Shown: positions 140 through 26,708 of the stretch, one piece after another
Numbering within the stretch: the first letter of the stretch is position 1
How the letters are laid out: each line of letters begins with the position of its first letter
IMG/VR virus record: IMGVR_UViG_3300013886_000019
Strand: one strand, 5' to 3'
DNA from: a virus
Length of the DNA: 26,708 nt
Notes under the pieces: model-generated
The model's database searches: none
Seen by the model: the letters and a program-made list of their open reading frames with translations, nothing else
Told to the model about the DNA's origin: nothing
Program-made: the position numbers and the translations under genes

Positions 140-700
140 TTCTGATTGCACAGAAATGGGGGGGATAACCACGAATCCCCTCCAGATGTGTTAATACCTG
201 ACTGTTAACCGGGGGGGTGTCGGGGGGTGAACATCGCTACAGGGTGGTCGCCCGATCCCCCCGCGGGAACCCCCCCTCAGGGCCCGGAGCATCGCTGGGT
301 ATCGGGGGATTGACCGGAGCAGGAGGGCGGGTCTAAGGGTACTGGATCGATCCAATGGTACTGGAAATCGGCAGGGGCATTGGGCGTTCATCCCGGCTGG
401 CACTACCAACAACCCTTCGGGCCCCCGATCTGTTCACCGGAATTGGGCGGGAGTGATAGCCCTCCGGTATCGTGTTCATCTGCCGGATCCAAGCCCTCTC
501 CCCGTTCACCCGGCCCCCGGGCACGTTCGCGGACTTCACGAAAACCCCCCCTCCCTCGCCCGGGCAACTGATAGGCAATCTTTATGACGGACCTACCGCC
601 AATGATTGAGTATACCCTTCATCCGGGCGGATCCGGCTGATCCTGGGGGTTTGCTCGCGTGGGGGGAGGTTGTAAAATGTGTCCGAAAAATGAGGTGAAC

Positions 701-12772: not shown

Positions 12773-13162
12773 ATGTCGCACATAACTACCATCAAGACCA
12801 AAGTCGTCCTGAAGGACGAGTCCCTCCTCCGGGAGGTCCTGGCCGGGATGCAGCGAACCCTGCGGGGGTTCAGGATCGAAGAGACCACGACCCGGGACGG
12901 CGACCGGCAGATCCTCGTCCGCTACGCTCCCATCGAGATCTACCAGACACGGGGCAACCTCCGGTTCGTCCTGAAGGACGGGGCCTGGCAGATGCAGGGC
13001 GACGGCTACAAGTGCTGGAATGAGTTCAAGGCCGTCACCGACCAGGTTCTCGTCGGCTACCAGCAGGCCGCCCTCCAGCGGGTGCTGATCCGGAACCGCT
13101 ACTCGACCACGGCGCAGGCGGTCTCCCCGTCCTGCGTCACCATGCACGCGAGGAGGTTCTGA
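12773..13162 (+). CDS. DUF1257 (Ycf35-like) protein
   Basis: MSHITTIKTK..LKDESLL..L start; ending VGYQQAALQRVL..NRY; position after a Ycf46-like ATPase. Confidence 0.75.
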   Translation: MSHITTIKTKVVLKDESLLREVLAGMQRTLRGFRIEETTTRDGDRQILVRYAPIEIYQTRGNLRFVLKDGAWQMQGDGYKCWNEFKAVTDQVLVGYQQAALQRVLIRNRYSTTAQAVSPSCVTMHARRF

Positions 13163-13586: not shown

Positions 13587-14243
13587 ATGGAGAAGATCTA
13601 CATCGTTCAAGTCAGGATGAGCAGCCCGAACCACACCGAGAAGGCGTCCGAAGAGGTCTCCTCGAAGGTTTCGATGATCTTCTACACCTTCGACAAGGAG
13701 ACCCGGCAGAAGATCTCGGCCTGCCGGCAGCGGTACAAGGGCCCGATCTACGCCGAGACGATCGCCTACCCCCCGAAGACGAGCGAATCGACCGGGTTCT
13801 CCCGGCTCTACCTCTGCAACGAGACCCAGCGACAGCGGATCGAGCAGCGGATCGCGGACGCCGACGTGGCGATGAAGGCGATCCACCCGGACCTCCGGGC
13901 GGCGGTGGACTTCCTCCCCCTGGACGCGGCCGAGATCGGGCGGGGGGCGCTCTACCAGCAGATCGCGGACTCGATCAAGTACAAGGTGCTGGATAAAGCG
14001 TTCGAGAAACTGGCGAATGTCGTCCTTGACGAGAACTCCGTCCTGACCCCCCGGACGAAGGCCCGGCTCAGGAAGATGGTCGATCAGCTCGACGCCCTGA
14101 ACATTCTGGAGGACGAGGATGTCGCGGCCAAGATCGCCTCGATCCGGCAGAAGATCGAGGACGAGGCGATCATGCCCCTCAAGGGCGAGCTCGCGGACGA
14201 CCTCAAGACCCTGAAGGGGCGGTTCCATGCGCTCGAGTTCTGA
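13587..14243 (+). CDS. Helical protein, DUF3150-like
   Basis: C-terminal LTPRTKARLRKMVDQLDALNILEDEDVAAKI pattern; context next to the AAA module. Family call is tentative. Confidence 0.5.
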   Translation: MEKIYIVQVRMSSPNHTEKASEEVSSKVSMIFYTFDKETRQKISACRQRYKGPIYAETIAYPPKTSESTGFSRLYLCNETQRQRIEQRIADADVAMKAIHPDLRAAVDFLPLDAAEIGRGALYQQIADSIKYKVLDKAFEKLANVVLDENSVLTPRTKARLRKMVDQLDALNILEDEDVAAKIASIRQKIEDEAIMPLKGELADDLKTLKGRFHALEF

Positions 14244-14279
14244 GGGGCGGGGCTACCCTCCGCTCGCCTGGGGGGCCCG

Positions 14280-14624
14280 ATGACGATTTGTGGTTGCTGG
14301 GAGCATTATCACCCTCCCCCACAGGTCTATGATCTCGCGACGGATCTCCAGATGATCCGGCACGAGGTCGAGGAGATCCTGCGAACCCAGCAGGCCATCA
14401 GTTCCCGACTGGACCGGCTCGCCGCGGTAACCCCCGGGGTACGAGAACTCCGGGCCGGGGTGCAGCCCTCGGTCCCCCGCACTCATGAGAGCCGGTTTCG
14501 GGTGCTGGAGTTCCCGGCGGAGGAAGAGACGGTCGCCCCGCCCGCACCGAAGAAGAGATCGCAGAGCCGATTCAAAAACCTCGAACTCCAACCCATTACA
14601 AAACCTGAAAAATGGAGTGACTAA
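14280..14624 (+). CDS. Hypothetical coiled-coil protein with two RFxxLE[FL] motifs
   Basis: SRFRVLEF and SRFKNLEL. Confidence 0.6.
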   Translation: MTICGCWEHYHPPPQVYDLATDLQMIRHEVEEILRTQQAISSRLDRLAAVTPGVRELRAGVQPSVPRTHESRFRVLEFPAEEETVAPPAPKKRSQSRFKNLELQPITKPEKWSD

Positions 14625-14625
14625 A

Positions 14626-14949
14626 ATGCGTACCCTCTACTATCCCGCACAGCAGGGCCGGCAGGCCGACCTCTGCCGCACCCTCGCCGCCAGCATCCTG
14701 AACCTCATCCGGGCCCCGGAGACCGCCGAGCAGTACAAGCTCGGCTTCACCGCCGCGAACCTCCGCGCCGAAGGCGTCGAGATCCCCGCCGGGGCCATGA
14801 CTCTCCTCGAGGTCCGGGGCTGGATCGCCCGGTCCCCCGAATGGTCGAAGGCGAAACCCCGGGCGGCGATCTGGATGCTGACCCCGGAAGCCGTCCGGTT
14901 CCTGGACGACCACGGGCTCGCTACCTCTTCCGGGGGTGCGACGGCATGA
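14626..14949 (+). CDS. Small wHTH-like protein
   Basis: FTAANL..EGVEIPAGAMTLLEVRGWI..SP....AIWMLT; leader AAAAATGGAGTGACTAAAATG. Confidence 0.6.
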   Translation: MRTLYYPAQQGRQADLCRTLAASILNLIRAPETAEQYKLGFTAANLRAEGVEIPAGAMTLLEVRGWIARSPEWSKAKPRAAIWMLTPEAVRFLDDHGLATSSGGATA

Positions 14950-15188
14950 GCGGCGCAAGCGTCATCACCGACAAGACCGTGGATGCCGTGCTCGACGCCC
15001 TCGAGAAGAAAGGCTACGAGCAGACGGACCTCACAAAGCCCCGGCCGGAGGAGGCCGTGATCACCCTCCACTACCGGCATTATCGGATCCGGTTCACCGT
15101 CCGGGTCGCGGACGAGGCCGACCCCGAACCTGAGGAGGAGCACCGCTGCACCTGCCCGACCTGCACCTGCCAGCACGGGGGGGCCTGA
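14946..15188 (+). CDS. Hypothetical protein with C-terminal HxCxCxxCxC cluster
   Basis: ATGA-coupled; HRCTCPTCTCQH. Confidence 0.6.
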   Translation: MSGASVITDKTVDAVLDALEKKGYEQTDLTKPRPEEAVITLHYRHYRIRFTVRVADEADPEPEEEHRCTCPTCTCQHGGA

Positions 15189-15189
15189 G

Positions 15190-15570
15190 ATGCCGCCGAC
15201 CGTCGAAGAGGCCTGGTCCGCGGTAGTCAAGACCCAGCCGGGGGAACCCCGGCCCCGGGTTGTCACCGTCAGCAAGGACGCCGGGAGCCTCCACCAGTAT
15301 GTCACCGACCTCGCCGCCGCCAACCCCCGGGCCACCTACCGGGTCGTCCCGGTCCTGGTCGTCGGGATGGAGGGGGTCCAGCCGGGGGACGAAGTCCGGG
15401 TCGTGACCCCCCAGGGGAAGCAGGCCTCGACCGGCCATGTCCTTGACCTCCGGGACGGCCTCGCGAAGGTCCGGTACGGGACCGCCGGCGGCACCGCTGA
15501 GGTCCCGGTCGAGCGCCTGGAAGTGGTGTCGCGCTGGGTGCGGTTCCCCCGGGCCGGGGAGGCGAGATAG
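15190..15570 (+). CDS. Hypothetical protein with SH3/KOW-like C-terminal barrel
   Basis: VQPGDEVRV..GHVLDLRDGLAKVRY..EVPVERLEVV. Confidence 0.6.
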   Translation: MPPTVEEAWSAVVKTQPGEPRPRVVTVSKDAGSLHQYVTDLAAANPRATYRVVPVLVVGMEGVQPGDEVRVVTPQGKQASTGHVLDLRDGLAKVRYGTAGGTAEVPVERLEVVSRWVRFPRAGEAR

Positions 15571-15574
15571 CCCC

Positions 15575-15756
15575 ATGCCCCCCTGCCCGAAAAGGAGTTC
15601 TGCATCATGTGTGGGAAGGACGTATCCCGGTCCTCGTAATCGACATGCCGGGGCGAGAAAAAGTACCGCCCGTACTGCAAGAAATGTGCCGTGGCGATGT
15701 TCCCGAGCTTTGCAGAGGTCTTCCCAATAGCATTTTGGTCTAAGAGAAAACCCTGA
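15575..15756 (+). pseudogene. Disrupted zinc-finger gene (CIMC...CKKC)
   Basis: One frame reads LPEKEFCIMCGKDVSRSS*STCRGEKKYRPYCKKCAVAMFP with an in-frame TAA at 15637-15639; ATG 15575 is out of frame by one C in a C6 run. Confidence 0.55.
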
Positions 15757-16399: not shown

Positions 16400-16822
16400 G
16401 CCCGGATCTCCTGCCGCAGGCGCCCTCTCCCGGGGGGCATCTCCCCTCTCTTCTCCGGCACAATTCTCTCCCGGCACCCCCCGCTCAAAACGCGATAGCG
16501 TGGCTCTGGTGCGATCCTGCGATCTGAGGATGTGCGGTATGGCCCGCCGGGAGCCTCGCTCAAACTGAAGCCTCGTTCCGCTCAAACGAAGGGCGGATCG
16601 GGCTTCGTTACCCGTATAGCAACATATGGTTTATGAGTGAATCCGTGACCGCAGGGGGGCGGGATCGCCCGGATCTCGCCAGGTCGCCAGGGGTTCGGGA
16701 ACCCGCCCCCGATCTCCTGTTTCCTGCCGATTTTCTGCACATGCAACTTTCTCGTTGCCCGGTTGGAAACCTTCATGTGGGATCGCCACCCATCCCCTCC
16801 GTACCCACACGGAGTGTTTAAA

Positions 16823-17314
16823 ATGCGATGGACAAATGAGCAGCAAGCCCTGATCGTGAAATATCGCGGAACGAACGCCCCTTCTCCAACAAACCTGACG
16901 CGGATCCCCGAAGGGGATCGAAGATACAAATGCCCGGTCTGCCACCTCGTCCTCTCCTCTGCCGACCTCGATGAGGGCCGGTGCCCCGTCTGCGGCGAGT
17001 CGGCCGGCCTGCGGATCATGTGCCCCCTCGACCACACCCACTGCTCTCACGGGGTCATCGAGTCGCTGGCCTACTGCCCGCTATGCGGCGAGCCCGTCTG
17101 CCCGGAGTGCGGGAGCCATGATGTCGCCCAGATGAGCCGAGTCACCGGGTACATCCAGGCAGTCGGCGGCTGGAACTCCGGGAAACGGCAGGAATTGAAG
17201 GATAGATCCCGGTACGACCCCTTCGACCTCGCAGCCGTCCCGGCCCCAGCTCCGGCGAAGGTGCCCCCGCCGCCCGTTCACACCCCCCCGGCCCCGATCG
17301 AGGTCGCGGATTAG
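16823..17314 (+). CDS. Stand-alone NrdD C-terminal-like zinc-ribbon / glycyl-radical-loop protein (not a full reductase)
   Basis: Several CxxC pairs, then CPECGSHDVAQMSRVTGYIQAVGGWNSGKRQELKDR; ATG after GGAGTGTTTAAA. Confidence 0.8.
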   Translation: MRWTNEQQALIVKYRGTNAPSPTNLTRIPEGDRRYKCPVCHLVLSSADLDEGRCPVCGESAGLRIMCPLDHTHCSHGVIESLAYCPLCGEPVCPECGSHDVAQMSRVTGYIQAVGGWNSGKRQELKDRSRYDPFDLAAVPAPAPAKVPPPPVHTPPAPIEVAD

Positions 17315-17451
17315 CGTGGATGGGGGAACTGATCTCCCCGCCAGACAATTCTTTTCTCTCGTCTCGCCCTCTCATGGGGGCTTCCCAGTTCGGGATTAGG
17401 CAAGTATGGAGAACGGCAACCTCTTTCCCGACACCCTTCCAATACTCGTGC

Positions 17452-17724
17452 ATGGCTCAGTACGAATACACCGTCCTCGCCCACTCCGCCGCCGAAGGCG
17501 GGTTCTGGGCCGAGGTCCCGGCGCTCCCTGGCTGCCTCGCGCAGGGAGAGACTGTCGAGGAGACGCTGACGAACATGCAGGAGGCCGCCGAGGCGCACCT
17601 GCAGGCGCTTCAGGACGAAGGGCGAACGGTACCGGAAGAAGAGGGGGGGCTGGTCGCCTGGATCAGGGTTCGCGAGGCTTCCGCGCCAGCGACCGGCGGT
17701 AGACCGGATACCGGCTCCCGGTGA
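17452..17724 (+). CDS. hicB: HicB-family antitoxin (orphan)
   Basis: EGGFWAEVPALPGCLAQGETVEETLTNMQEA. Confidence 0.85.
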   Translation: MAQYEYTVLAHSAAEGGFWAEVPALPGCLAQGETVEETLTNMQEAAEAHLQALQDEGRTVPEEEGGLVAWIRVREASAPATGGRPDTGSR

Positions 17725-18462: not shown

Positions 18463-18589
18463 GAGTGCTCCTTCCCCCAGGGGTCCCGTCCACGATCACG
18501 GCCCCGCTGTTCCGCCGGATGCAGGTGCCCTGCTGGGCGCAGCGGAGGGCGAGGTCGAGGAAGTAGGTTGGGCGGTCGGTGCGAGTCAT
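18455..18589 (-). pseudogene. Truncated dCMP deaminase (ComEB-like) N-terminal fragment, 44 aa
   Basis: Hand translation MTRTDRPTYFLDLALRCAQQGTCIRRNSGAVIVDGTPGGRSTHA* matches the YF..A...A.RSTC.RR..GAVIV start of the family; catalytic HAE and PCxxC motifs absent. Confidence 0.7.
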
Positions 18590-19428
18590 GCTGACCGCCA
18601 CCCCCGGCGACCGAAGGAAGCGTTGAGCGAACTCTGGGTCCGATCTGCTTCCAGGAGCCGGTCGATCCGCTGTTTGTATGCCCGGAAGTTCCGGAACTTG
18701 TCATTCTGGTTCTTTGAGTACCGGTCATACGCTCCGGTGCAGTCCTGCCGCCAGGCCCCCGAGTCCGCAGAGGTGATCAGGCTCCGGATCCCCGGATCCT
18801 TCAGGACTTGGTAGGTCAGGCCGAACGCATGGATCGAGCAGATCGCGGGGATGTTCTCCCGCACATACTTGAGGATCCGGTATATCTCAGCGACGTTTGT
18901 CCGGCCCTTGAGCGACCCCACGGCCATATGGTAGTTCCAGCCCCCGGTGCCTTCCTCCTCGCAGTCCCAGATGTACTGGACCGCGTGCTGGTAGTCGGCA
19001 AGGGTGCTGCCCTGAATCGTAAAGATCCACTGGATGTCGTCCTGTTTCCAGGGATGGACGCAGTCCCGCATGAGGTCCCACCCGTTCTCGAGGCTCTCCT
19101 CGATCTGGTTCCGGCGCTCGGATTCATCCATAGATCTCGGGATGATAAAGTCCGGGGTGGCCGCGTAGCCGAGCTGCGGGTAGGTATCCCAGAACTCAAA
19201 GACCCACTCCACGTATTCCTCCGGCGAGAAGGGGTATTCTTTGAAGGAATAAGCCCCCGAGTCGATCATGATCGACCGGGCCCCGTCGAGATACTTCGGA
19301 ACCGCGAGTCTCCCGGCCCCACGGCGCCCCCCCTTCTTCCAGCACAGCCCCGCCGAGACCAGCACATCGACATCCTTCAGGTGCCGGTCGAAGCTGGAGG
19401 CGTCACACGCATAGTAATACCGATCCAT
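18586..19428 (-). CDS. TGT-fold transglycosylase, DpdA-like (7-deazaguanine DNA modification candidate)
   Basis: MIDSGAYSF, ATPD, TIQG, VGSL, IHAFG, SADSGAW; start at 19428 after the leader AAAAATGAGGATAAA. Confidence 0.7.
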   Translation of the reverse strand: MDRYYYACDASSFDRHLKDVDVLVSAGLCWKKGGRRGAGRLAVPKYLDGARSIMIDSGAYSFKEYPFSPEEYVEWVFEFWDTYPQLGYAATPDFIIPRSMDESERRNQIEESLENGWDLMRDCVHPWKQDDIQWIFTIQGSTLADYQHAVQYIWDCEEEGTGGWNYHMAVGSLKGRTNVAEIYRILKYVRENIPAICSIHAFGLTYQVLKDPGIRSLITSADSGAWRQDCTGAYDRYSKNQNDKFRNFRAYKQRIDRLLEADRTQSSLNASFGRRGWRSA

Positions 19429-19600
19429 TTTATCCTCATTTTTCTGGTTCCCCGGTTTGCGCCCCCGGAGACGGGCATGATCCTGGAGATGGGCCAAGAG
19501 GGTCGCCCCCGGCCCTCTCCCGCTATCCTGTGGACTCACCTCAATAGAGGGGGGATGAAGCAGGAAGCCACGCCCTTCAGGGCGTGGTAGTTCACCCATA

Positions 19601-20224
19601 CTAATTCTTCTGTTCAGATGTCTGCATTTCCTTGTTCAGATCCTCTTCTGCCCACTCTTTCAGTCTGAGGTAAAGGGTGTTCCTGGCAATCTTAAGCCTC
19701 CGGGCGATCTCTGCCTTCGAGACCCCAAGGGCAAGCAGTCGCTCAACCTTTGCACGATCAACCTCCTTCACTTTAGGGCCGAACCGTATCCCCTTTTCAA
19801 GGGCTGCACGGCGCCCAGCTTCAGTTCTCTCAAGGATCCGCTCGCGTTCATACTCTGCGAAGGCCCCTGAAATATGGAAGAAGAGCCGCCCATTCGGGGT
19901 GGTCGTATCAATACTGTCGCTGGGAGAGATCAGATCGATATTATGGTCCTTGAGCCATCCGGTAAACCGGATCAGGTCCGAGAGCGAGCGCCCTAACCTG
20001 TCCAGTTTGTAGACAATCACGGCCTGGGCTCCATAAACCCCGATATCGAGTTCCTCCATCATGCGGGTGAACTCTGGCCGGTCAGTGTTCTTCCCTGACG
20101 CCTTCTCGGCATAGATGTGCAGCAATTCGATGTTTCGGTACCCACAGAACCGTTTTATTTCTGTGATCTGGAGATCGAGATCCTGATCTTTAGTACTCAC
20201 TCTGGCATATGCAACTGCTTTCAA
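19601..20224 (-). CDS. Small serine recombinase (resolvase/invertase) with C-terminal HTH
   Basis: YARVST..Q..DLQ; EKASGKNTDRPEF; VYKLDRLGRS; GRLFFHISGAFAEYERE; TTG start; lower GC. Confidence 0.95.
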   Translation of the reverse strand: MKAVAYARVSTKDQDLDLQITEIKRFCGYRNIELLHIYAEKASGKNTDRPEFTRMMEELDIGVYGAQAVIVYKLDRLGRSLSDLIRFTGWLKDHNIDLISPSDSIDTTTPNGRLFFHISGAFAEYERERILERTEAGRRAALEKGIRFGPKVKEVDRAKVERLLALGVSKAEIARRLKIARNTLYLRLKEWAEEDLNKEMQTSEQKN

Positions 20225-20440
20225 TGTCTCATCTCCTCTTCTTTGATGGGGTTTAGTTCACATCTGTAATAATCCTTTTCTTCAAACAGTCAGTTGGCCG
20301 ATAACTCCCCTCACTTATAGGACGTTCAGTGCCTGTTAAGTTAGAGGACACTGGTTAACAACTGGAATTGGTGTAATGAAAGGGAACTTGAGTTTTGTGA
20401 GTAACACGAAAGTGAGGAAAAGTATTACGTGAACGGTAGC

Positions 20441-20458
20441 ACGTTTTTATAAAAACGT
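20441..20458. repeat. Perfect 18-bp palindrome ACGTTTTTATAAAAACGT
   Basis: Read directly; central TTATAA; in the AT-rich gap upstream of the recombinase. Confidence 0.85.
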
Positions 20459-20583
20459 CACACTTCTCCGCCTTGAGATCGATCTGGATCATGGCGGGCG
20501 ACAGGATCCGATCCGGGGAGGATCGCGGGAGGGCGTCTCCCCCCCAAGATATCTTATAGCCGGATGAAGGCCAACCCGAGCTG

Positions 20584-20760
20584 ATGACCTTTCGTGATGG
20601 GTGCCGGAGCGTGGTGAACCCCCTCGCCCGGTGCTGGGACTGGCTCGTCATGGCCCGGGGCCTCTGGTGTTTCGTCCGGGCCAGGGATGCGCTTGCCGAC
20701 CTCGATCAGGAGGCTCTGATCCGGGGAGAGCTGAAACTGCGAAATAAAAAAGGAGTCTAA
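20584..20760 (+). CDS. Possible 58-aa hypothetical protein
   Basis: Hand translation MTFRDGCRSVVNPLARCWDWLVMARG...KKGV*; ends 2 nt before the next ATG; weak RBS. Confidence 0.3.
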   Translation: MTFRDGCRSVVNPLARCWDWLVMARGLWCFVRARDALADLDQEALIRGELKLRNKKGV

Positions 20761-20762
20761 AA

Positions 20763-21020
20763 ATGCGAAAAATGTGTTCAACTCAAAAAATTGGCCTGTT
20801 CTTGGCCGCACTGGTGTTTGCGGGCTGGATCGGGCTTCTGGTGCTGTACCCCGCAGAGGGGTTGCCGTTGCCGGTCTTCGGGATGTATCTGATCTTCGCC
20901 TCCGGGGCGGTAGGCTGCGCCACCCTTTGTGTGCAACACGGGCTCTTCGGGTACCCGGGCGAGCAAGACCCCCGAACCCTGATCGAGATCTCGCTGGAGG
21001 AGGGCCCCGATGCCCCCTGA
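20763..21020 (+). CDS. Small membrane protein (2 TM)
   Basis: Two hydrophobic segments; leader AAAAAAGGAGTCTAAAAATG. Confidence 0.65.
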   Translation: MRKMCSTQKIGLFLAALVFAGWIGLLVLYPAEGLPLPVFGMYLIFASGAVGCATLCVQHGLFGYPGEQDPRTLIEISLEEGPDAP

Positions 21021-22973: not shown

Positions 22974-23121
22974 GGGAACCCCTCCGCACCCCTCATCAGG
23001 TGACCCCCCGGATCCTCTTCTCACTCCTGCGCCGCCCCGCGCCCCGATTCTCTGATCCGTCCCGTATCATCACCTCCCAAAACCCGATCCTATCCTCGCA
23101 ACCCGAAGCAACGCCATAGAT

Positions 23122-23173
23122 AACCTTTATCTCTCCTTCCTTCCATCTCCCCTGTAGAGCACCCTGTAGAGCA
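23122..23173 (+). promoter_or_regulatory. Putative promoter of the small-gene array: AACCTTTATC plus tandem 2 x CCCTGTAGAGCA (23150-23161, 23162-23173)
   Basis: TATA-like box resembles 15789; the perfect 12-bp tandem repeat is read directly. Confidence 0.45.
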
Positions 23174-23219
23174 ACCCCCGACGAGGAGGTGGATCTGCCG
23201 AGATCCGGCAGGAACGAGC

Positions 23220-23483
23220 ATGAAAACCAATGCAAAAGGGCGGCGGTGCGCCCCCACGGTGACGGCCCGGCGGCTGGAGCAGTTCCCTGGAAAGGGGACC
23301 GCCTACATCCGCGACGGCACCCCGAACCCCCGGCTGACGCGGCCGGAAGACTATGGGTGGACCGAGATCTCGGACGCCGAGATCGCGAAGTTCGCCCGGC
23401 TCGGCTACGACATCTGGTACAAGACCGCCAGCATGGGCGGGGCGCACCGGGTGTACCGGTCGCTGAAGAAGGCCGGGAAGTAG
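23220..23483 (+). CDS. Small basic hypothetical protein
   Basis: First gene of the right-hand array. Confidence 0.6.
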   Translation: MKTNAKGRRCAPTVTARRLEQFPGKGTAYIRDGTPNPRLTRPEDYGWTEISDAEIAKFARLGYDIWYKTASMGGAHRVYRSLKKAGK

Positions 23484-23516
23484 TGAGTGACTGAACGAAA
23501 AAATGAGGTAAGCAAA

Positions 23517-23822
23517 ATGGCAACCAACCCCAACGAAACCTACCCCTACGACATCGTCCACGCGACGCGCTGGTCGAAGGGCGGCAAAGCAGAGCGAAAA
23601 ACCCGGCTGGTCGTACTCCGGTTCAACCTGCCGGCTGGCAGCACCAAGTACCGGTATGCCATGCGCTGGCAGACTGACGGCGGCGAGGACGGCCCCACCT
23701 TCGGCGGCGGGGCCTACCAGACCCGGAGGGCGGCTCAGGATGCCATGATGAAGACCTACCTGGCCCACAATGCCGTCTACGGGAAGGGCTCGATCAGCCA
23801 CCTGCCGGGGATCGCGAAGTGA
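23517..23822 (+). CDS. Small basic hypothetical protein
   Basis: Leader at 23500. Confidence 0.75.
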   Translation: MATNPNETYPYDIVHATRWSKGGKAERKTRLVVLRFNLPAGSTKYRYAMRWQTDGGEDGPTFGGGAYQTRRAAQDAMMKTYLAHNAVYGKGSISHLPGIAK

Positions 23823-23890
23823 GGGGGGGTCCCCCCCTCGCGTTCGCTGACCGGCGAGAGAACAACTACAGAAAAATGAGGTAAAAAATG
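23820..23890 (+). repeat. ~70-bp hairpin-plus-leader spacer, copy 1
   Basis: GAGGGGGGG-T-CCCCCCCTC hairpin; 15-bp CCCCCTCGCGTTCGC and CGAGAGAAC shared with 25704-25773. Confidence 0.85.
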
Positions 23891-24322
23891 CAACGCAAAC
23901 CAAGCAGCAAGGCAACCCCCCCGAAGGCGAGGTCCTCGATCCCGGTCATCCCGGCCATGCGAGGATTCTCGTTTCTCACCGGGGACGTGAACTGGAAAGA
24001 GTACGGCGGAACCTTCTACCGGAGCTTTGGGGACGGAACCTACGCCCTCATTGAGTTCATCAACCTCGAAGATGCTGTCGGGTATGGGGGGATCCGGGGG
24101 AACAAGTATGCGGCCGTAGGACGAACCGTGGACCTCTCGCCGGGAGGGTTCTCGCTGAGAAACCTCGATTCAGCCCTCCGCACCATCGGGGCCTCTCCCG
24201 CGACCCGGAACCCCAAGGTTCTCCTCAATGCGGTGAACGCCTACGGGTCATTTGATGTTGACTTCGAGATCTTCGGCAACAATGCCGACAAGCTCCTGGC
24301 CGCGGCGAAACGCCGGTACTGA
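23888..24322 (+). CDS. Hypothetical protein (FLTGDVNWKEYGG motif)
   Basis: Leader at 23873. Confidence 0.75.
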   Translation: MQRKPSSKATPPKARSSIPVIPAMRGFSFLTGDVNWKEYGGTFYRSFGDGTYALIEFINLEDAVGYGGIRGNKYAAVGRTVDLSPGGFSLRNLDSALRTIGASPATRNPKVLLNAVNAYGSFDVDFEIFGNNADKLLAAAKRRY

Positions 24323-24351
24323 CCTGCATATGCAGTAAAATGAGGTAAAAA

Positions 24352-24897
24352 ATGGATCAGTCATCATCCGCTATCAGGATCCTTGAGAAGAGCAAGCGAG
24401 AGAAGGAGTTCCGGGTCTCGCGAGGCCATCTCTACTACTTTGCGGGGGAGTACCACTACAAGCGCGATGCCGAAGACACCAAGAACGCCCTGAAAAAGGC
24501 GGGGTATTCGGTATTGATGCGGAAGGGGCCTCGCCAGGCTGACGGGTATCAACTCCATGCTCGGAAGGTCAAAGCGACTTCCGAAGACAAAGCGAACCCC
24601 CTGTATGGGGGGAACCGGGTGGTAGAGGTCACTCTTGAATCCGCTCGGCCCCCGATCTGGACCGTCACGCTCATGCACACCGCAAAGAATGGCGAGTACC
24701 GGAGAGATTACTCTAAATCCGCTGGCGAGTACACCCGGCACCATGACGGCCCCTCTATCTCCCCTGCGGTCGCAGAGGCAAAACGTCTGGCGAAGAAATG
24801 CGGGAAAGGAACCTACGTTGTCATCTACGGTGCGACCTCAGCAGAGCGGTTGCAGTGGGATGGGAAGCGGTTCGTGAATCTGGGACGTACCAAGTAA
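24352..24897 (+). CDS. Two-domain protein with N-terminal SPOR-like paralogue domain
   Basis: GHLYYFAGEYHYKRDAEDTKNALKKAGY; CTGCATATGCAG palindrome (24324-24335) and leader upstream. Confidence 0.75.
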   Translation: MDQSSSAIRILEKSKREKEFRVSRGHLYYFAGEYHYKRDAEDTKNALKKAGYSVLMRKGPRQADGYQLHARKVKATSEDKANPLYGGNRVVEVTLESARPPIWTVTLMHTAKNGEYRRDYSKSAGEYTRHHDGPSISPAVAEAKRLAKKCGKGTYVVIYGATSAERLQWDGKRFVNLGRTK

Positions 24898-24910
24898 AAT
24901 GAGGTAAAAA

Positions 24911-25138
24911 ATGGCCACGAAAAAAGGATCCACTAAAAAGCAAGTTCCCCGTGATGGGTACATTAATGTCTGGGCAAAGGATGCAAGAAAGGCCAAGGCT
25001 TTGGTGAAGAAAAGGTATGATCTCCCACCGGGGGCCGAGATTCTCGCAACAAGAGTCCAAGTGAAAAACGCCGGACCTCGGCCACTGCCGTACCCCTATA
25101 TCTATGAAATTGAGGTCTATGTCCCATATAGGGACTAA
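24911..25138 (+). CDS. Small basic hypothetical protein
   Basis: Leader at 24896. Confidence 0.75.
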   Translation: MATKKGSTKKQVPRDGYINVWAKDARKAKALVKKRYDLPPGAEILATRVQVKNAGPRPLPYPYIYEIEVYVPYRD

Positions 25139-25164
25139 ACCCCTGGGGTAAAATGAGGTGAAAA

Positions 25165-25428
25165 ATGGCGAAGCGTGGTATCAATCTGGTCAAAGTGACC
25201 CCGGCCCTGAAGGAAGAACTCCAGAAGGCCGGGATCGCGAAGGCCCGGCTGCGGGGCGAGGTACTGCTCGAGTTCAGGCACCTCTTCCTGGGGAAGTATG
25301 TTCCGGGGAGTTACACGACCCAGTACTATCCCCTCACCGGCCGGGAAGAGACCCCGAAGGTCCGACAGGCCGTGCGGACCTGGGAGCAGCGAACCGGACA
25401 GAAGATCGAAACACTCTACGAAAAATGA
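25165..25428 (+). CDS. Small basic hypothetical protein
   Basis: Leader at 25150; its stop is the TGA of the next leader. Confidence 0.75.
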   Translation: MAKRGINLVKVTPALKEELQKAGIAKARLRGEVLLEFRHLFLGKYVPGSYTTQYYPLTGREETPKVRQAVRTWEQRTGQKIETLYEK

Positions 25429-25438
25429 GGTAAGAAAA

Positions 25439-25699
25439 ATGCCCTGGAAAAAAGATGGCACATATGTGCCGGTGCCCGATGACCGGACCTTCAACGGCAA
25501 GCGGTTCTCCCTCCTGTGGGTAACCGGGTTCAGCTCGAAGCGTCGGGCAGAACAGACGAAGAACGCCCTCAAAGAGGGGGGCAGCAAGCCCTACAACGTG
25601 CGGATCGTTCCCTATGATGGAGGCTATTACCTCTACACCGCCCCACGGGTGACCCGGGAAGATTCCCAGTGGTTGCTTAAGCGGATAGGGGGGATCTGA
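25439..25699 (+). CDS. Small SPOR-like-family paralogue
   Basis: FNGKRF...FSSKRRAEQTKNALKEGG..NVRIVP..GYYLYT; leader at 25422. Confidence 0.75.
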   Translation: MPWKKDGTYVPVPDDRTFNGKRFSLLWVTGFSSKRRAEQTKNALKEGGSKPYNVRIVPYDGGYYLYTAPRVTREDSQWLLKRIGGI

Positions 25700-25703
25700 G
25701 GGG

Positions 25704-25773
25704 TGAGGGGGTTCCCCCTCGCGTTCGCGAACCGTCGAGAGAACTATCTGAGTAAAATGAGGTACGAAAAATG
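25704..25773 (+). repeat. ~70-bp hairpin-plus-leader spacer, copy 2
   Basis: GAGGGGG-TT-CCCCCTC hairpin; core shared with 23820-23890. Confidence 0.85.
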
Positions 25774-26040
25774 GTGAAACGCTACAACTACAAGAACCCC
25801 AAACCCGCCCAATGGCATGAGGGGCCCCGCTACGACATCTCGGTCGCTAACAACCTGCTCTACACGAACAGCGACTGGACCCGGGGGAAGGTCACGGTCT
25901 TCATCAAGGACAAGTGGGACGGCAACAAGATCCACCAGCGCACCGGCGATGCCCAGATGATCGGGAACTTCAGCCCGATCTGGGTGAACTGGAAGGGCAA
26001 GAAGATTATGATCGAGGAACTGCTCGACAGCACGCAGTAA
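25771..26040 (+). CDS. Small hypothetical protein
   Basis: Leader at 25754; the TAA stop overlaps the next leader. Confidence 0.75.
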   Translation: MVKRYNYKNPKPAQWHEGPRYDISVANNLLYTNSDWTRGKVTVFIKDKWDGNKIHQRTGDAQMIGNFSPIWVNWKGKKIMIEELLDSTQ

Positions 26041-26052
26041 AATGAGGTAAAA

Positions 26053-26322
26053 ATGGCAACTAAAAGGAAAACGGTCCTCTTCAAGGACTTGAAGGTCGGG
26101 GAAAGCTTCGAGTTCGGGTCTTCGCCCGATGACTCGTTCTACCTCTCCATGGAACGCGGCCCCTTTGTCAAGGTCAGCCCCCGGAAGTACCGTCCTCGTG
26201 ACTCAGGTGCGAAGCTCAGGGCACGGCAGAAGATCCACGAGGTCTACAAGCTCAGGCCCGCGAAGTTGAGCGACCTGGATATGCAGGTCGGTAGCATCAA
26301 TGTCGAGGTTGTCCGGCGGTAA
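26053..26322 (+). CDS. Small basic hypothetical protein
   Basis: Leader at 26039; VLFKDLKVGESFEF suggests a small beta-barrel. Confidence 0.75.
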   Translation: MATKRKTVLFKDLKVGESFEFGSSPDDSFYLSMERGPFVKVSPRKYRPRDSGAKLRARQKIHEVYKLRPAKLSDLDMQVGSINVEVVRR

Positions 26323-26335
26323 CAGGAGGTGAAAA

Positions 26336-26650
26336 ATGGAGTTCAAATCACTCGAACAATTATTCGAGGAGAACAACGGCCGGACGGTCGTCATGGACCG
26401 CCGGAAGTACCGGGTCCGGTACCGCCGGTACCGGGGCGGCGAGGACATCTGGCTGGAACCCGTCAACAAGAACGCCCCGTGGTACCGCAAGATGCGGGAC
26501 TACCTGGGCGATGACTGGGTCACGGACGCGAAGCACCTTGAGGGCAAGGCCTTTAGCGAGGTCTACCGGCAGCTCGCCTGGAAACAGCCCTCGACCCCCG
26601 GCCGCAAGGCGACGACCTCGCGGAAGAAGGCCCCGGCCCGGAGGCGCTGA
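26336..26650 (+). CDS. Small protein with K/R-rich tail
   Basis: Canonical GGAGGTGAAAA RBS; RKATTSRKKAPARRR tail. Confidence 0.75.
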   Translation: MEFKSLEQLFEENNGRTVVMDRRKYRVRYRRYRGGEDIWLEPVNKNAPWYRKMRDYLGDDWVTDAKHLEGKAFSEVYRQLAWKQPSTPGRKATTSRKKAPARRR

Positions 26651-26651
26651 C

Positions 26652-26708
26652 ATGCCCGCCGCTCCCCGCAAGCCCGTCCGCCGGGCCAAACCCCCAGCCC
26701 CCCGCAAC
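26652..26708 (+). CDS. Possible 5' end of a further basic array gene (truncated by the window edge)
   Basis: ATG 1 nt after the previous stop; MPAAPRKPVRRAKPP. Confidence 0.35.
   Translation, partial: MPAAPRKPVRRAKPPAPRN

Follow-up and report, generated by a model that had tools for sequence, protein, structure and literature searches.

A repeated translation leader as the probable recombination joint of a shuffled gene array in an uncultured archaeal mobile element

Why would a row of small, mostly unrelated genes each begin behind the same short piece of DNA, and is this piece only a signal for the ribosome? The question is raised by one end of a 26,708-nucleotide stretch recorded in IMG/VR as a virus (IMGVR_UViG_3300013886_000019; this whole stretch is called the window hereafter), which belongs to an uncultured mobile element, either a virus or a plasmid. 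This end carries nine small basic orphan genes (23517-26650), flanked on either side by a conserved anchor gene and each preceded by a leader of about 20 nt. Based on the distribution of these genes in related elements, we think it probable that this is a hyperplastic accessory-gene region whose translation leader doubles as a joint for short-homology recombination.

From 23220 to the end of the window we find ten complete genes and one that is cut, all in the same orientation and encoding proteins of 75 to 181 amino acids (aa). An exact 10-mer, AAAATGAGGT, starts at 23500, 23873, 24337, 24896, 25150, 25422, 25754 and 26039, that is, before eight consecutive genes and always on the + strand, and a variant, AACAGGAGGTGAAAAATG (site at 26321), takes its place before the ninth (26336). 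The window holds ten exact copies altogether, every one on the + strand, the two outside the array lying at 687 and 12757; with up to one mismatch there are 17 matches, versus 0.58 expected from dinucleotide shuffles. Three of the leaders visibly provide the stop codon of the preceding gene (TAA at 24895, TGA at 25426, TAA at 26038). The GC content of the window ranges from 53 to 69%, and GC at third codon positions differs among the array genes, from about 0.69 to 0.91, with gene 24911 lower still. What a first-pass annotation, made from the letters alone, had described here, namely a row of small co-oriented genes, an identical 10-mer before eight of them, stop codons supplied by the leader and a base composition that changes from gene to gene, is thus borne out. 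The features of the array and the two leader copies outside it are listed here:

22974..23219 (+), conserved non-coding region upstream of the array; 91% mean column identity over four elements
23220..23483 (+), 5' anchor gene w23220, 87 aa, basic, without leader; heads the array in relatives too
23498..23519 (+), leader 1, with GAGGT at 23505 and ATG at 23517
23517..23822 (+), cassette gene w23517, 101 aa, orphan
23823..23870 (+), hairpin spacer rich in GC, with G7-T-C7 and another short stem; optional module from cassette to leader; -27.9 kcal/mol, z -2.7
23871..23890 (+), leader 2
23888..24322 (+), cassette gene w23888, 144 aa; upstream of w24352 here, downstream of w24352 in L004-L010
24335..24354 (+), leader 3; palindrome CTGCATATGCAG directly before it, at 24324-24335
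24352..24897 (+), cassette gene w24352, 181 aa, the most widespread cassette; TAA stop within leader 4
24894..24913 (+), leader 4
24911..25138 (+), cassette gene w24911, 75 aa; two population alleles, 100% and ~78% identical to the window copy
25148..25167 (+), leader 5, GAGGTGA variant
25165..25428 (+), cassette gene w25165, 87 aa; ends on the TGA within A-TGA-GG of leader 6
25420..25441 (+), leader 6
25439..25699 (+), cassette gene w25439, 86 aa; sub-threshold SPOR-like match, low-confidence model
25700..25751 (+), another copy of the hairpin spacer, with 78% identity to 23826-23888
25752..25773 (+), leader 7
25771..26040 (+), cassette gene w25771, 89 aa; TAA stop within leader 8
26037..26055 (+), leader 8
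26053..26322 (+), cassette gene w26053, 89 aa
26319..26338 (+), leader 9, the AACAGGAGGTGAAAAATG variant with a fuller Shine-Dalgarno (SD) sequence
26336..26650 (+), cassette gene w26336, 104 aa, with a K/R-rich tail
26653..26708 (+), start of the 3' anchor gene, an open reading frame (ORF) still open at the window end, without leader; matches the DUF2695-like 102-aa gene t27 of L027/L050
12757..12775 (+), non-array leader copy, before gene 12773-13162
687-696 (+), further non-array copy of AAAATGAGGT

Is the order of these genes kept in related elements? A metagenome scan with the 21-mer leader returned 41 contigs, of which about 28 were GC-rich and bore parts of the array or the backbone, and about 35 related metagenome contigs were compared. 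The relatives do not share one gene order but differ by insertion, deletion, duplication and permutation of cassettes. Homologues of w24352 occur at 77-97% identity, and in six independent assemblies the w25771 homologue lies directly upstream and the w23888 homologue directly downstream of it, the reverse of the window order. When the leader-preceded genes were called on all contigs and clustered, 40 cassette types were obtained; eight different cassettes succeed w24352, six different ones come first after the w23220 anchor, and some arrays contain duplicated cassettes (L021, L034, L047). The positions where homology stops are mostly those of the leader: counting the homology ends that are internal to both sequences (n = 147), 130 (88%) fall within 20 nt of a leader GAGGT, versus 11% for random positions. 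The exceptions mostly lie where a gene ends next to one of the two hairpin spacers or behind the final cassette, some of them at the 5' edge of a spacer, and adjacent homology blocks overlap only within the leader.

The tight junctions are of 66 distinct types, 23 of which occur on at least two contigs and 15 on at least three. Neighboring cassettes differ in their identity to the window (89, 98.9, 87.9, 78.1 and 95.2% in L005, for example), and therefore have separate histories. Wherever it occurs, and next to whichever cassettes, w25771 keeps at least 98.9% identity, w24352 varies between 87.7% and 97.4%, and w24911 is either 100% or ~78% identical. No inversions were seen, the leaders all being in direct orientation.

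Some junctions lie inside genes. In L032 (877-1089), the first 20 codons of gene 24352 are fused in frame to the tail of gene 25165 at the microhomology GAGTTC-GG (window 24405-24413 / 25268-25278), and other in-frame chimeras are found at L012:380-649, L027:807-926 and L046:236-343 (- strand) and in proteins P0005 and P0006. As far as can be judged from the sequences, these off-leader chimeras at microhomology indicate short-homology recombination rather than a site-specific enzyme. They also show that new hybrid ORFs arise in the array.

One contig, L014 (LSQX01379772.1), forms a closed cycle of 1,432 bp with four cassettes (w24352, t4, t9, w25771), mapping to 24332-24914 and 25750-26053; its ends abut, the last base corresponding to window position 24427 and the first to 24428. 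It is either a mini-circle like those of the promoter-early stem-loop (PeSL) cassettes of phages, discussed below, or a collapsed tandem duplication.

A second variable block, which is free of leaders, was observed downstream of the array between genes t14 and t24 of the backbone, where L027/L050, L029 and L037 carry three non-homologous sets of 5-6 genes. Plasticity in this element family is therefore not limited to leader joints.

Could the leader simply be the ordinary ribosome-binding site (RBS) of the host, repeated here as before any of its genes? The 21-mer GTAAAATGAGGTRAAAAATGG has matches in 4 of ~185,000 species genomes, a single one being archaeal, where it stands before one ordinary gene in DNA unrelated to the element. 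The 10-mer gives 582 matches in 121 Methanomicrobiales genomes, i.e., about 5 per genome of ~2 Mb or ~2 per Mb, which is of the same order as a reversed-pattern control, versus 8 in 2.6 kb in the array. In genome G001, only one of the 13 copies forms a complete leader where a gene begins, and the two bins that hold fragments of the element (see below) contain 1 and 2 copies of the 10-mer. The motif is therefore not the host's usual RBS context and the relatives are shuffled at it, two results that support the proposal of the first-pass annotation that the shared leader is at once a ribosome-binding context and a joint for gene gain and loss.

Over 98 distinct junctions, the consensus of the leader is GTAAAATGAGGTRAAAAA, with a conserved block (G-T-A-A-A-A-T-G-A-G-G-T-R-A-A-A-A-A) from -7 to +10 counted from the G of GAGGT and an ATG that follows 4-7 nt past GAGGT. 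The pattern by which the junctions were selected fixed only positions -4 to +5, so the flanking positions are conserved independently of selection; upstream of -7, where the preceding gene has its 3' end, the logo contains no information. The 3' end of the 16S rRNA reads GGAUCACCUCCU in four Methanomicrobiales and pairs only with GAGGU, or with GAGGUGA where R is G, and a T stands at -1 in 95 of the 98 junctions, where a G would lengthen the pairing. Because of both, the leader is more than an SD requires, as the first-pass annotation had remarked of its invariant AAAAT. Stop codons occupy all three frames at a spacing of 5 nt (TAA at -6, TGA at -1, TRA at +4), and the upstream gene ends inside the leader in 32 of 90 junctions, 24 times with the TAA at -6, 7 times with the TGA at -1 and once with a TAA at +4. 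The start regions behind leaders are also predicted to be more open (0.61 vs 0.36 in mean unpaired probability, p = 2.6e-4) than 21 others in the window. Most genes outside the array have GGAGGT-type sites in a GC-rich context.

Several further details of the leader and its flanks were recorded. Every leader contains a two-codon mini-ORF, ATG AGG TAA/TGA, just ahead of the real start (e.g., 24340-24348), and its opposite strand has two T-runs that could pass for archaeal terminators of antisense transcripts. A palindrome, CTGCA(T/C)ATGCAG, lies directly ahead of some leaders (window 24324-24335, L001:85-118, L004 at ~1820) and might serve as an operator, or as a processing site that goes with the leader; CTGCCTGCAG is found ahead of the single full leader in a Methanoregulaceae metagenome-assembled genome (host genome locus L052). 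The GC-rich hairpin is present at only two of the nine joints of the window, the tight junctions being without it. Its two copies (23823-23870 and 25700-25751) are 78% identical, with G7-T-C7 or G5-TT-C5 and a second stem, and behave as an optional, separate module in relatives; only the first folds better than its shuffles (z -2.7 vs -0.4). The leader itself is asymmetric, and no inverted repeat or dyad was found at tight junctions.

How might the array be transcribed? A reading of the leader as an archaeal promoter was set aside on position alone. The conserved region of ~245 nt before the anchor gene contains a sole TATA-like element, AACCTTTATCTC at 23122-23133, which is invariant; by the simplest reading of the sequence, this region is probably the candidate single promoter of a polycistronic mRNA for the whole array. 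The same region shows a 12-bp tandem duplication of CCCTGTAGAGCA (23150-23173) in the window only, the three aligned relatives having a single copy.

Taken together, we propose the following scheme. The array would be transcribed as one operon from the conserved upstream promoter. The module would act, in the first place, as translational punctuation, ending the upstream gene in any frame close to the next start and providing an SD core of 5-7 nt, while the A-tracts would keep the start region single-stranded in a transcript of 60-65% GC, such that each gene is offered a similar open initiation site. As the identical block of ~20 nt is the only sequence common to otherwise unrelated genes, it would also be the recombination joint: recombination would fall there and, acting within and between co-infecting elements, would delete, duplicate, insert and permute whole, undamaged genes. 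The leader may actively drive recombination rather than only mark the places where recombinants survive; the translation strength, the single promoter and the recombination pathway are likewise inferred.

A number of points weigh against this interpretation. About half of the contigs were retrieved with the leader as query, and the set is hence enriched for leader-bearing arrays; the comparative data are short-read metagenome assemblies throughout. Leaders make up nearly all of the intergenic space, and selection for intact genes after random recombination would concentrate breakpoints there too. The backbone block between t14 and t24 has been replaced without any leader. Finally, the leader as a whole is the limit to which the crossover can be resolved: the spacer behind GAGGT follows neither partner, and flank variants were uninformative on the 3' side. 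An alternative built on such points is that the leader is a translation signal only, serving expression or the binding of an unknown factor, and that the arrays are the intact survivors of random illegitimate recombination. This explanation, which we regard as unlikely, predicts similar breakpoint maps, and is in keeping with the chimeras within genes, as recombination is not confined to the leader; the conservation beyond rRNA pairing could in turn reflect a binding factor, as was proposed for the start-associated sequences (SAS) of mycobacteriophages (PMC3203893). Yet single cassettes recur in many orders and in duplicate only in the leader array, whereas the leader-free block underwent a single multi-gene replacement with gene order preserved. 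Adjacent homology blocks always overlap in the identical leader, and where the 65-nt spacer provides another neutral site, most ends still lie at the leader.

If the leader is a joint, it could also be the target of an enzyme, as in integrons or shufflons, perhaps of the serine recombinase encoded 3 kb upstream of the array (19601-20224, - strand; Resolvase + HTH_7, E 8.5e-42), which has a 75% identical homologue on L031; the 1,432-bp cycle of L014 could then be an excised circle. However, the asymmetric leader contains neither a dyad nor an attC-like inverted repeat, the window showed no tyrosine integrase, and the junctions outside leaders are at microhomology. Moreover, L022 has the array but not the recombinase segment at the corresponding place, and the gene sits in a patch of low GC (~19000-21000, 53-58% vs ~65% around), so that it looks like a separately acquired module. 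Site-specific recombination at the leader is for us very improbable. The shuffling might, lastly, be an artifact, assemblers having misjoined reads at the leader, or the contigs being stretches of one long array with duplicated cassettes. All relatives are short-read contigs, some arrays do have duplicated cassettes, and L014 may be a collapsed tandem repeat, but the assemblers that appear in the contig records ("k141" MEGAHIT contigs) end with k-mers longer than the identical block of ~18-22 nt, as presumably does Logan (k = 31). Junctions recur across independent samples and assemblers (w25771-w24352-w23888 on six contigs; 23 types on at least two contigs), arrays anchored at the same w23220 begin with six different cassettes, and alleles of one cassette are up to 22% apart between contigs. 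We consider an artifact the least probable of these explanations.

The interpretation of the leader as both translation signal and short-homology joint can be carried further, to a recombinase-independent "universal gene joint" in which three-frame stops, the mini-ORF (ATG AGG TRA), the SD and the A-spacer would have any captured ORF, in any frame, terminated, re-initiated and expressed. Leader exchange would release mini-circles such as L014 that move genes between co-infecting elements, which would make the array an archaeal functional analogue of the integron running on the host's short-homology recombination, and a nursery of chimeric genes. We offer this extended version as a speculation that is rather unlikely to hold in full.

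What do the cassettes encode? All array products are basic (pI 9.6-10.3). None reaches the cut-off of a Pfam family, and PHROGs gave nothing for nine of the ten proteins searched. An exhaustive protein search with the 181-aa product of w24352 returned its own family, two chimeras, a single weak repeat protein and nothing else, and no relative of it was found among species-representative genomes. The first-pass annotation had pointed to SPOR-like paralogues in the array, a claim that stands only in weakened form: the SPOR domain (PF05036) scores 20.2 bits in 25439-25699, under the Pfam gathering threshold of 21, blastp aligns 24352 and 25439 at E = 0.003 over 35 aa, and hhalign gives 61% over one helix. 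A single-sequence model of 25439-25699 has a beta-alpha-beta-beta-alpha order, with a model confidence (pLDDT) of only 58. AlphaFold models of two cassettes (pLDDT 52 and 58) were too weak to justify fold searches, and atlas look-ups for cassettes gave scores below 0.9 in both cases. A hidden paralogy among the cassettes, which would have made the array a gene accordion, was ruled out, only 1 of 120 profile pairs reaching 90% probability. That the products are host-takeover or counter-defence proteins is a guess.

The carrier has other genes as well. In the window these include a methyltransferase, two GT4 glycosyltransferases, a radical-SAM protein and an AAA+ ATPase, to which the relatives add an MT-A70 methylase, an RNase H, a zinc-ribbon protein, sugar-modifying enzymes, and a reverse transcriptase beside PKD-domain proteins. 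In L040 (2-1168 and 1458-4702), the reverse transcriptase (RVT_1) adjoins large PKD-domain proteins, and this region may be a diversity-generating retroelement on the same element family. A 183-aa zinc-ribbon protein of the window (16763-17314) ends in the C-terminal glycyl-radical domain of the anaerobic ribonucleotide reductase NrdD, and could be a free-standing "spare part" acquired from the host. Next to it and further on lie regions encoding an HicB-like antitoxin-fold protein (17320-17724, E 4e-9), with no HicA partner noted, and a weakly TGT/DpdA-like protein (18586-19599, - strand; E 9e-4, below cut-off). No capsid, portal or terminase gene was found among the genes annotated in the window and the related contigs, and the array DNA had no match in a phage collection. 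IMG/VR contained no match for the 20-mer leader or the 181-aa protein, and a single distant match, at 36% identity to the AAA+ ATPase, whose contig has no leader.

Two Methanomicrobiales bins contain short contigs that are 96% and 86% identical to window 14579-15688 and 13589-14527, respectively. The NrdD fragment has 72-81% DNA identity to a locus in most of the 302 genomes that gave a match (401 searched), and the related contigs bear names that we take to be those of anaerobic-digester or biogas-reactor projects. On this evidence, the host is probably a Methanomicrobiales methanogen living in anaerobic digesters, an assignment in which we have moderate confidence.

Viruses and plasmids of methanogens are poorly known, and methanogens matter for biogas production. 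The population data are unusually clear here, with the 40 cassette types and 66 junction types coming from many biogas-reactor metagenomes. Modules of the PeSL type that double as joints explain how orphan accessory genes are exchanged in T4-type phages, and the archaeal case had rested on analogy. A joint reduced to a translational signal of ~18 nt would be small enough for mutagenesis, and the leader could be tried as a compact expression part for high-GC archaea. It may also offer a possible explanation why start-associated motifs such as SAS are conserved past the needs of rRNA pairing.

How does this array compare with known systems? Integron cassette arrays are built on attC sites and the IntI tyrosine integrase. 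The array resembles them in its co-oriented, promoterless, mostly unrelated small genes behind one promoter, in a content and order that vary, and possibly in circular intermediates. It differs in that its tight junctions lack attC-like inverted repeats and its joint is a ribosome-binding leader, which fits short-homology recombination; a scan of ~50 window ORFs against Pfam gave no tyrosine recombinase or IntI. The inversion and deletion systems of serine recombinases (Hin/Gin/resolvase) pair a recombinase gene with dyad-symmetric crossover sites where the rearrangements end; the window has a recombinase gene at 19601-20224, but its leaders have no dyad symmetry and stand in direct orientation, and no inversions were seen. 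In the haloarchaeal myovirus HGTV-1, as summarized in PMC3950731, a conserved TATA-box-like motif with an inverted repeat precedes most of the ORFs in one arm, and was suggested to act like PeSL in regulation and shuffling. It too is an archaeal mobile element with one motif before many ORFs; yet its motif is promoter-like and its shuffling is proposed by analogy only, whereas here the motif is a translation leader and the shuffling is documented across about 35 contigs.

The PeSL cassettes themselves, in the hyperplastic regions of T4-type phages, consist of a strong early sigma-70 promoter, to which a BRE/TATA element would correspond in archaea, and a stem-loop terminator that end in an SD/start codon before ORFans (Arbiol et al., 2010, PMC2839356; Comeau et al., 2014, PMC4122927), and mediate modular shuffling and the formation of mini-circles (PMC2839356; PMC4122927). 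Both systems place a short module before many small ORFan genes, reaching from the upstream stop to the SD and start, and the indels and replacements that fall at the module in relatives of those phages have their parallel in the breakpoints at the leader. L014 is a possible counterpart of the mini-circles, and a polyG/polyC stem-loop occurs at two joints. However, each gene is its own transcription unit in the PeSL regions, whereas the ~18 nt of stops, SD and A-tracts leave no room for a promoter and the array is apparently one operon, with a TATA-like element only upstream of the whole (23122-23133). A stem-loop is also absent from seven of the nine joints, and the host is archaeal.

The SAS of Cluster K mycobacteriophages (Pope et al., 2011, PMC3203893) is an asymmetric 13-bp sequence (consensus GGGATAGGAGCCC) with an SD core, 3-7 bp before mostly ATG starts. 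It is confined to the non-structural half, precedes different gene families, is essentially absent from the host and is conserved beyond 16S pairing; the upstream stop sometimes lies inside the motif, and a role in translation initiation was proposed, the host or phage factor being left open (PMC3203893). The available text proposes no role in gene shuffling (PMC3203893). The leader of the window is likewise asymmetric, stands in one orientation a few nt before ATG, precedes genes from several families, is rare in host genomes and shows conservation that reaches past rRNA pairing. Its consensus is nevertheless GTAAAATGAGGTRAAAAA and not GGGATAGGAGCCC, and the SAS genes are dispersed where those of the window form a tight array, such that it is an analogue and not a member; in addition, the population data for the window's array show shuffling at the motif. 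The array is thus closest to PeSL in effect and to SAS in form. Modular shuffling at a repeated regulatory module is known; in this mobile element of methanogens, the module consists of no more than a translation leader.

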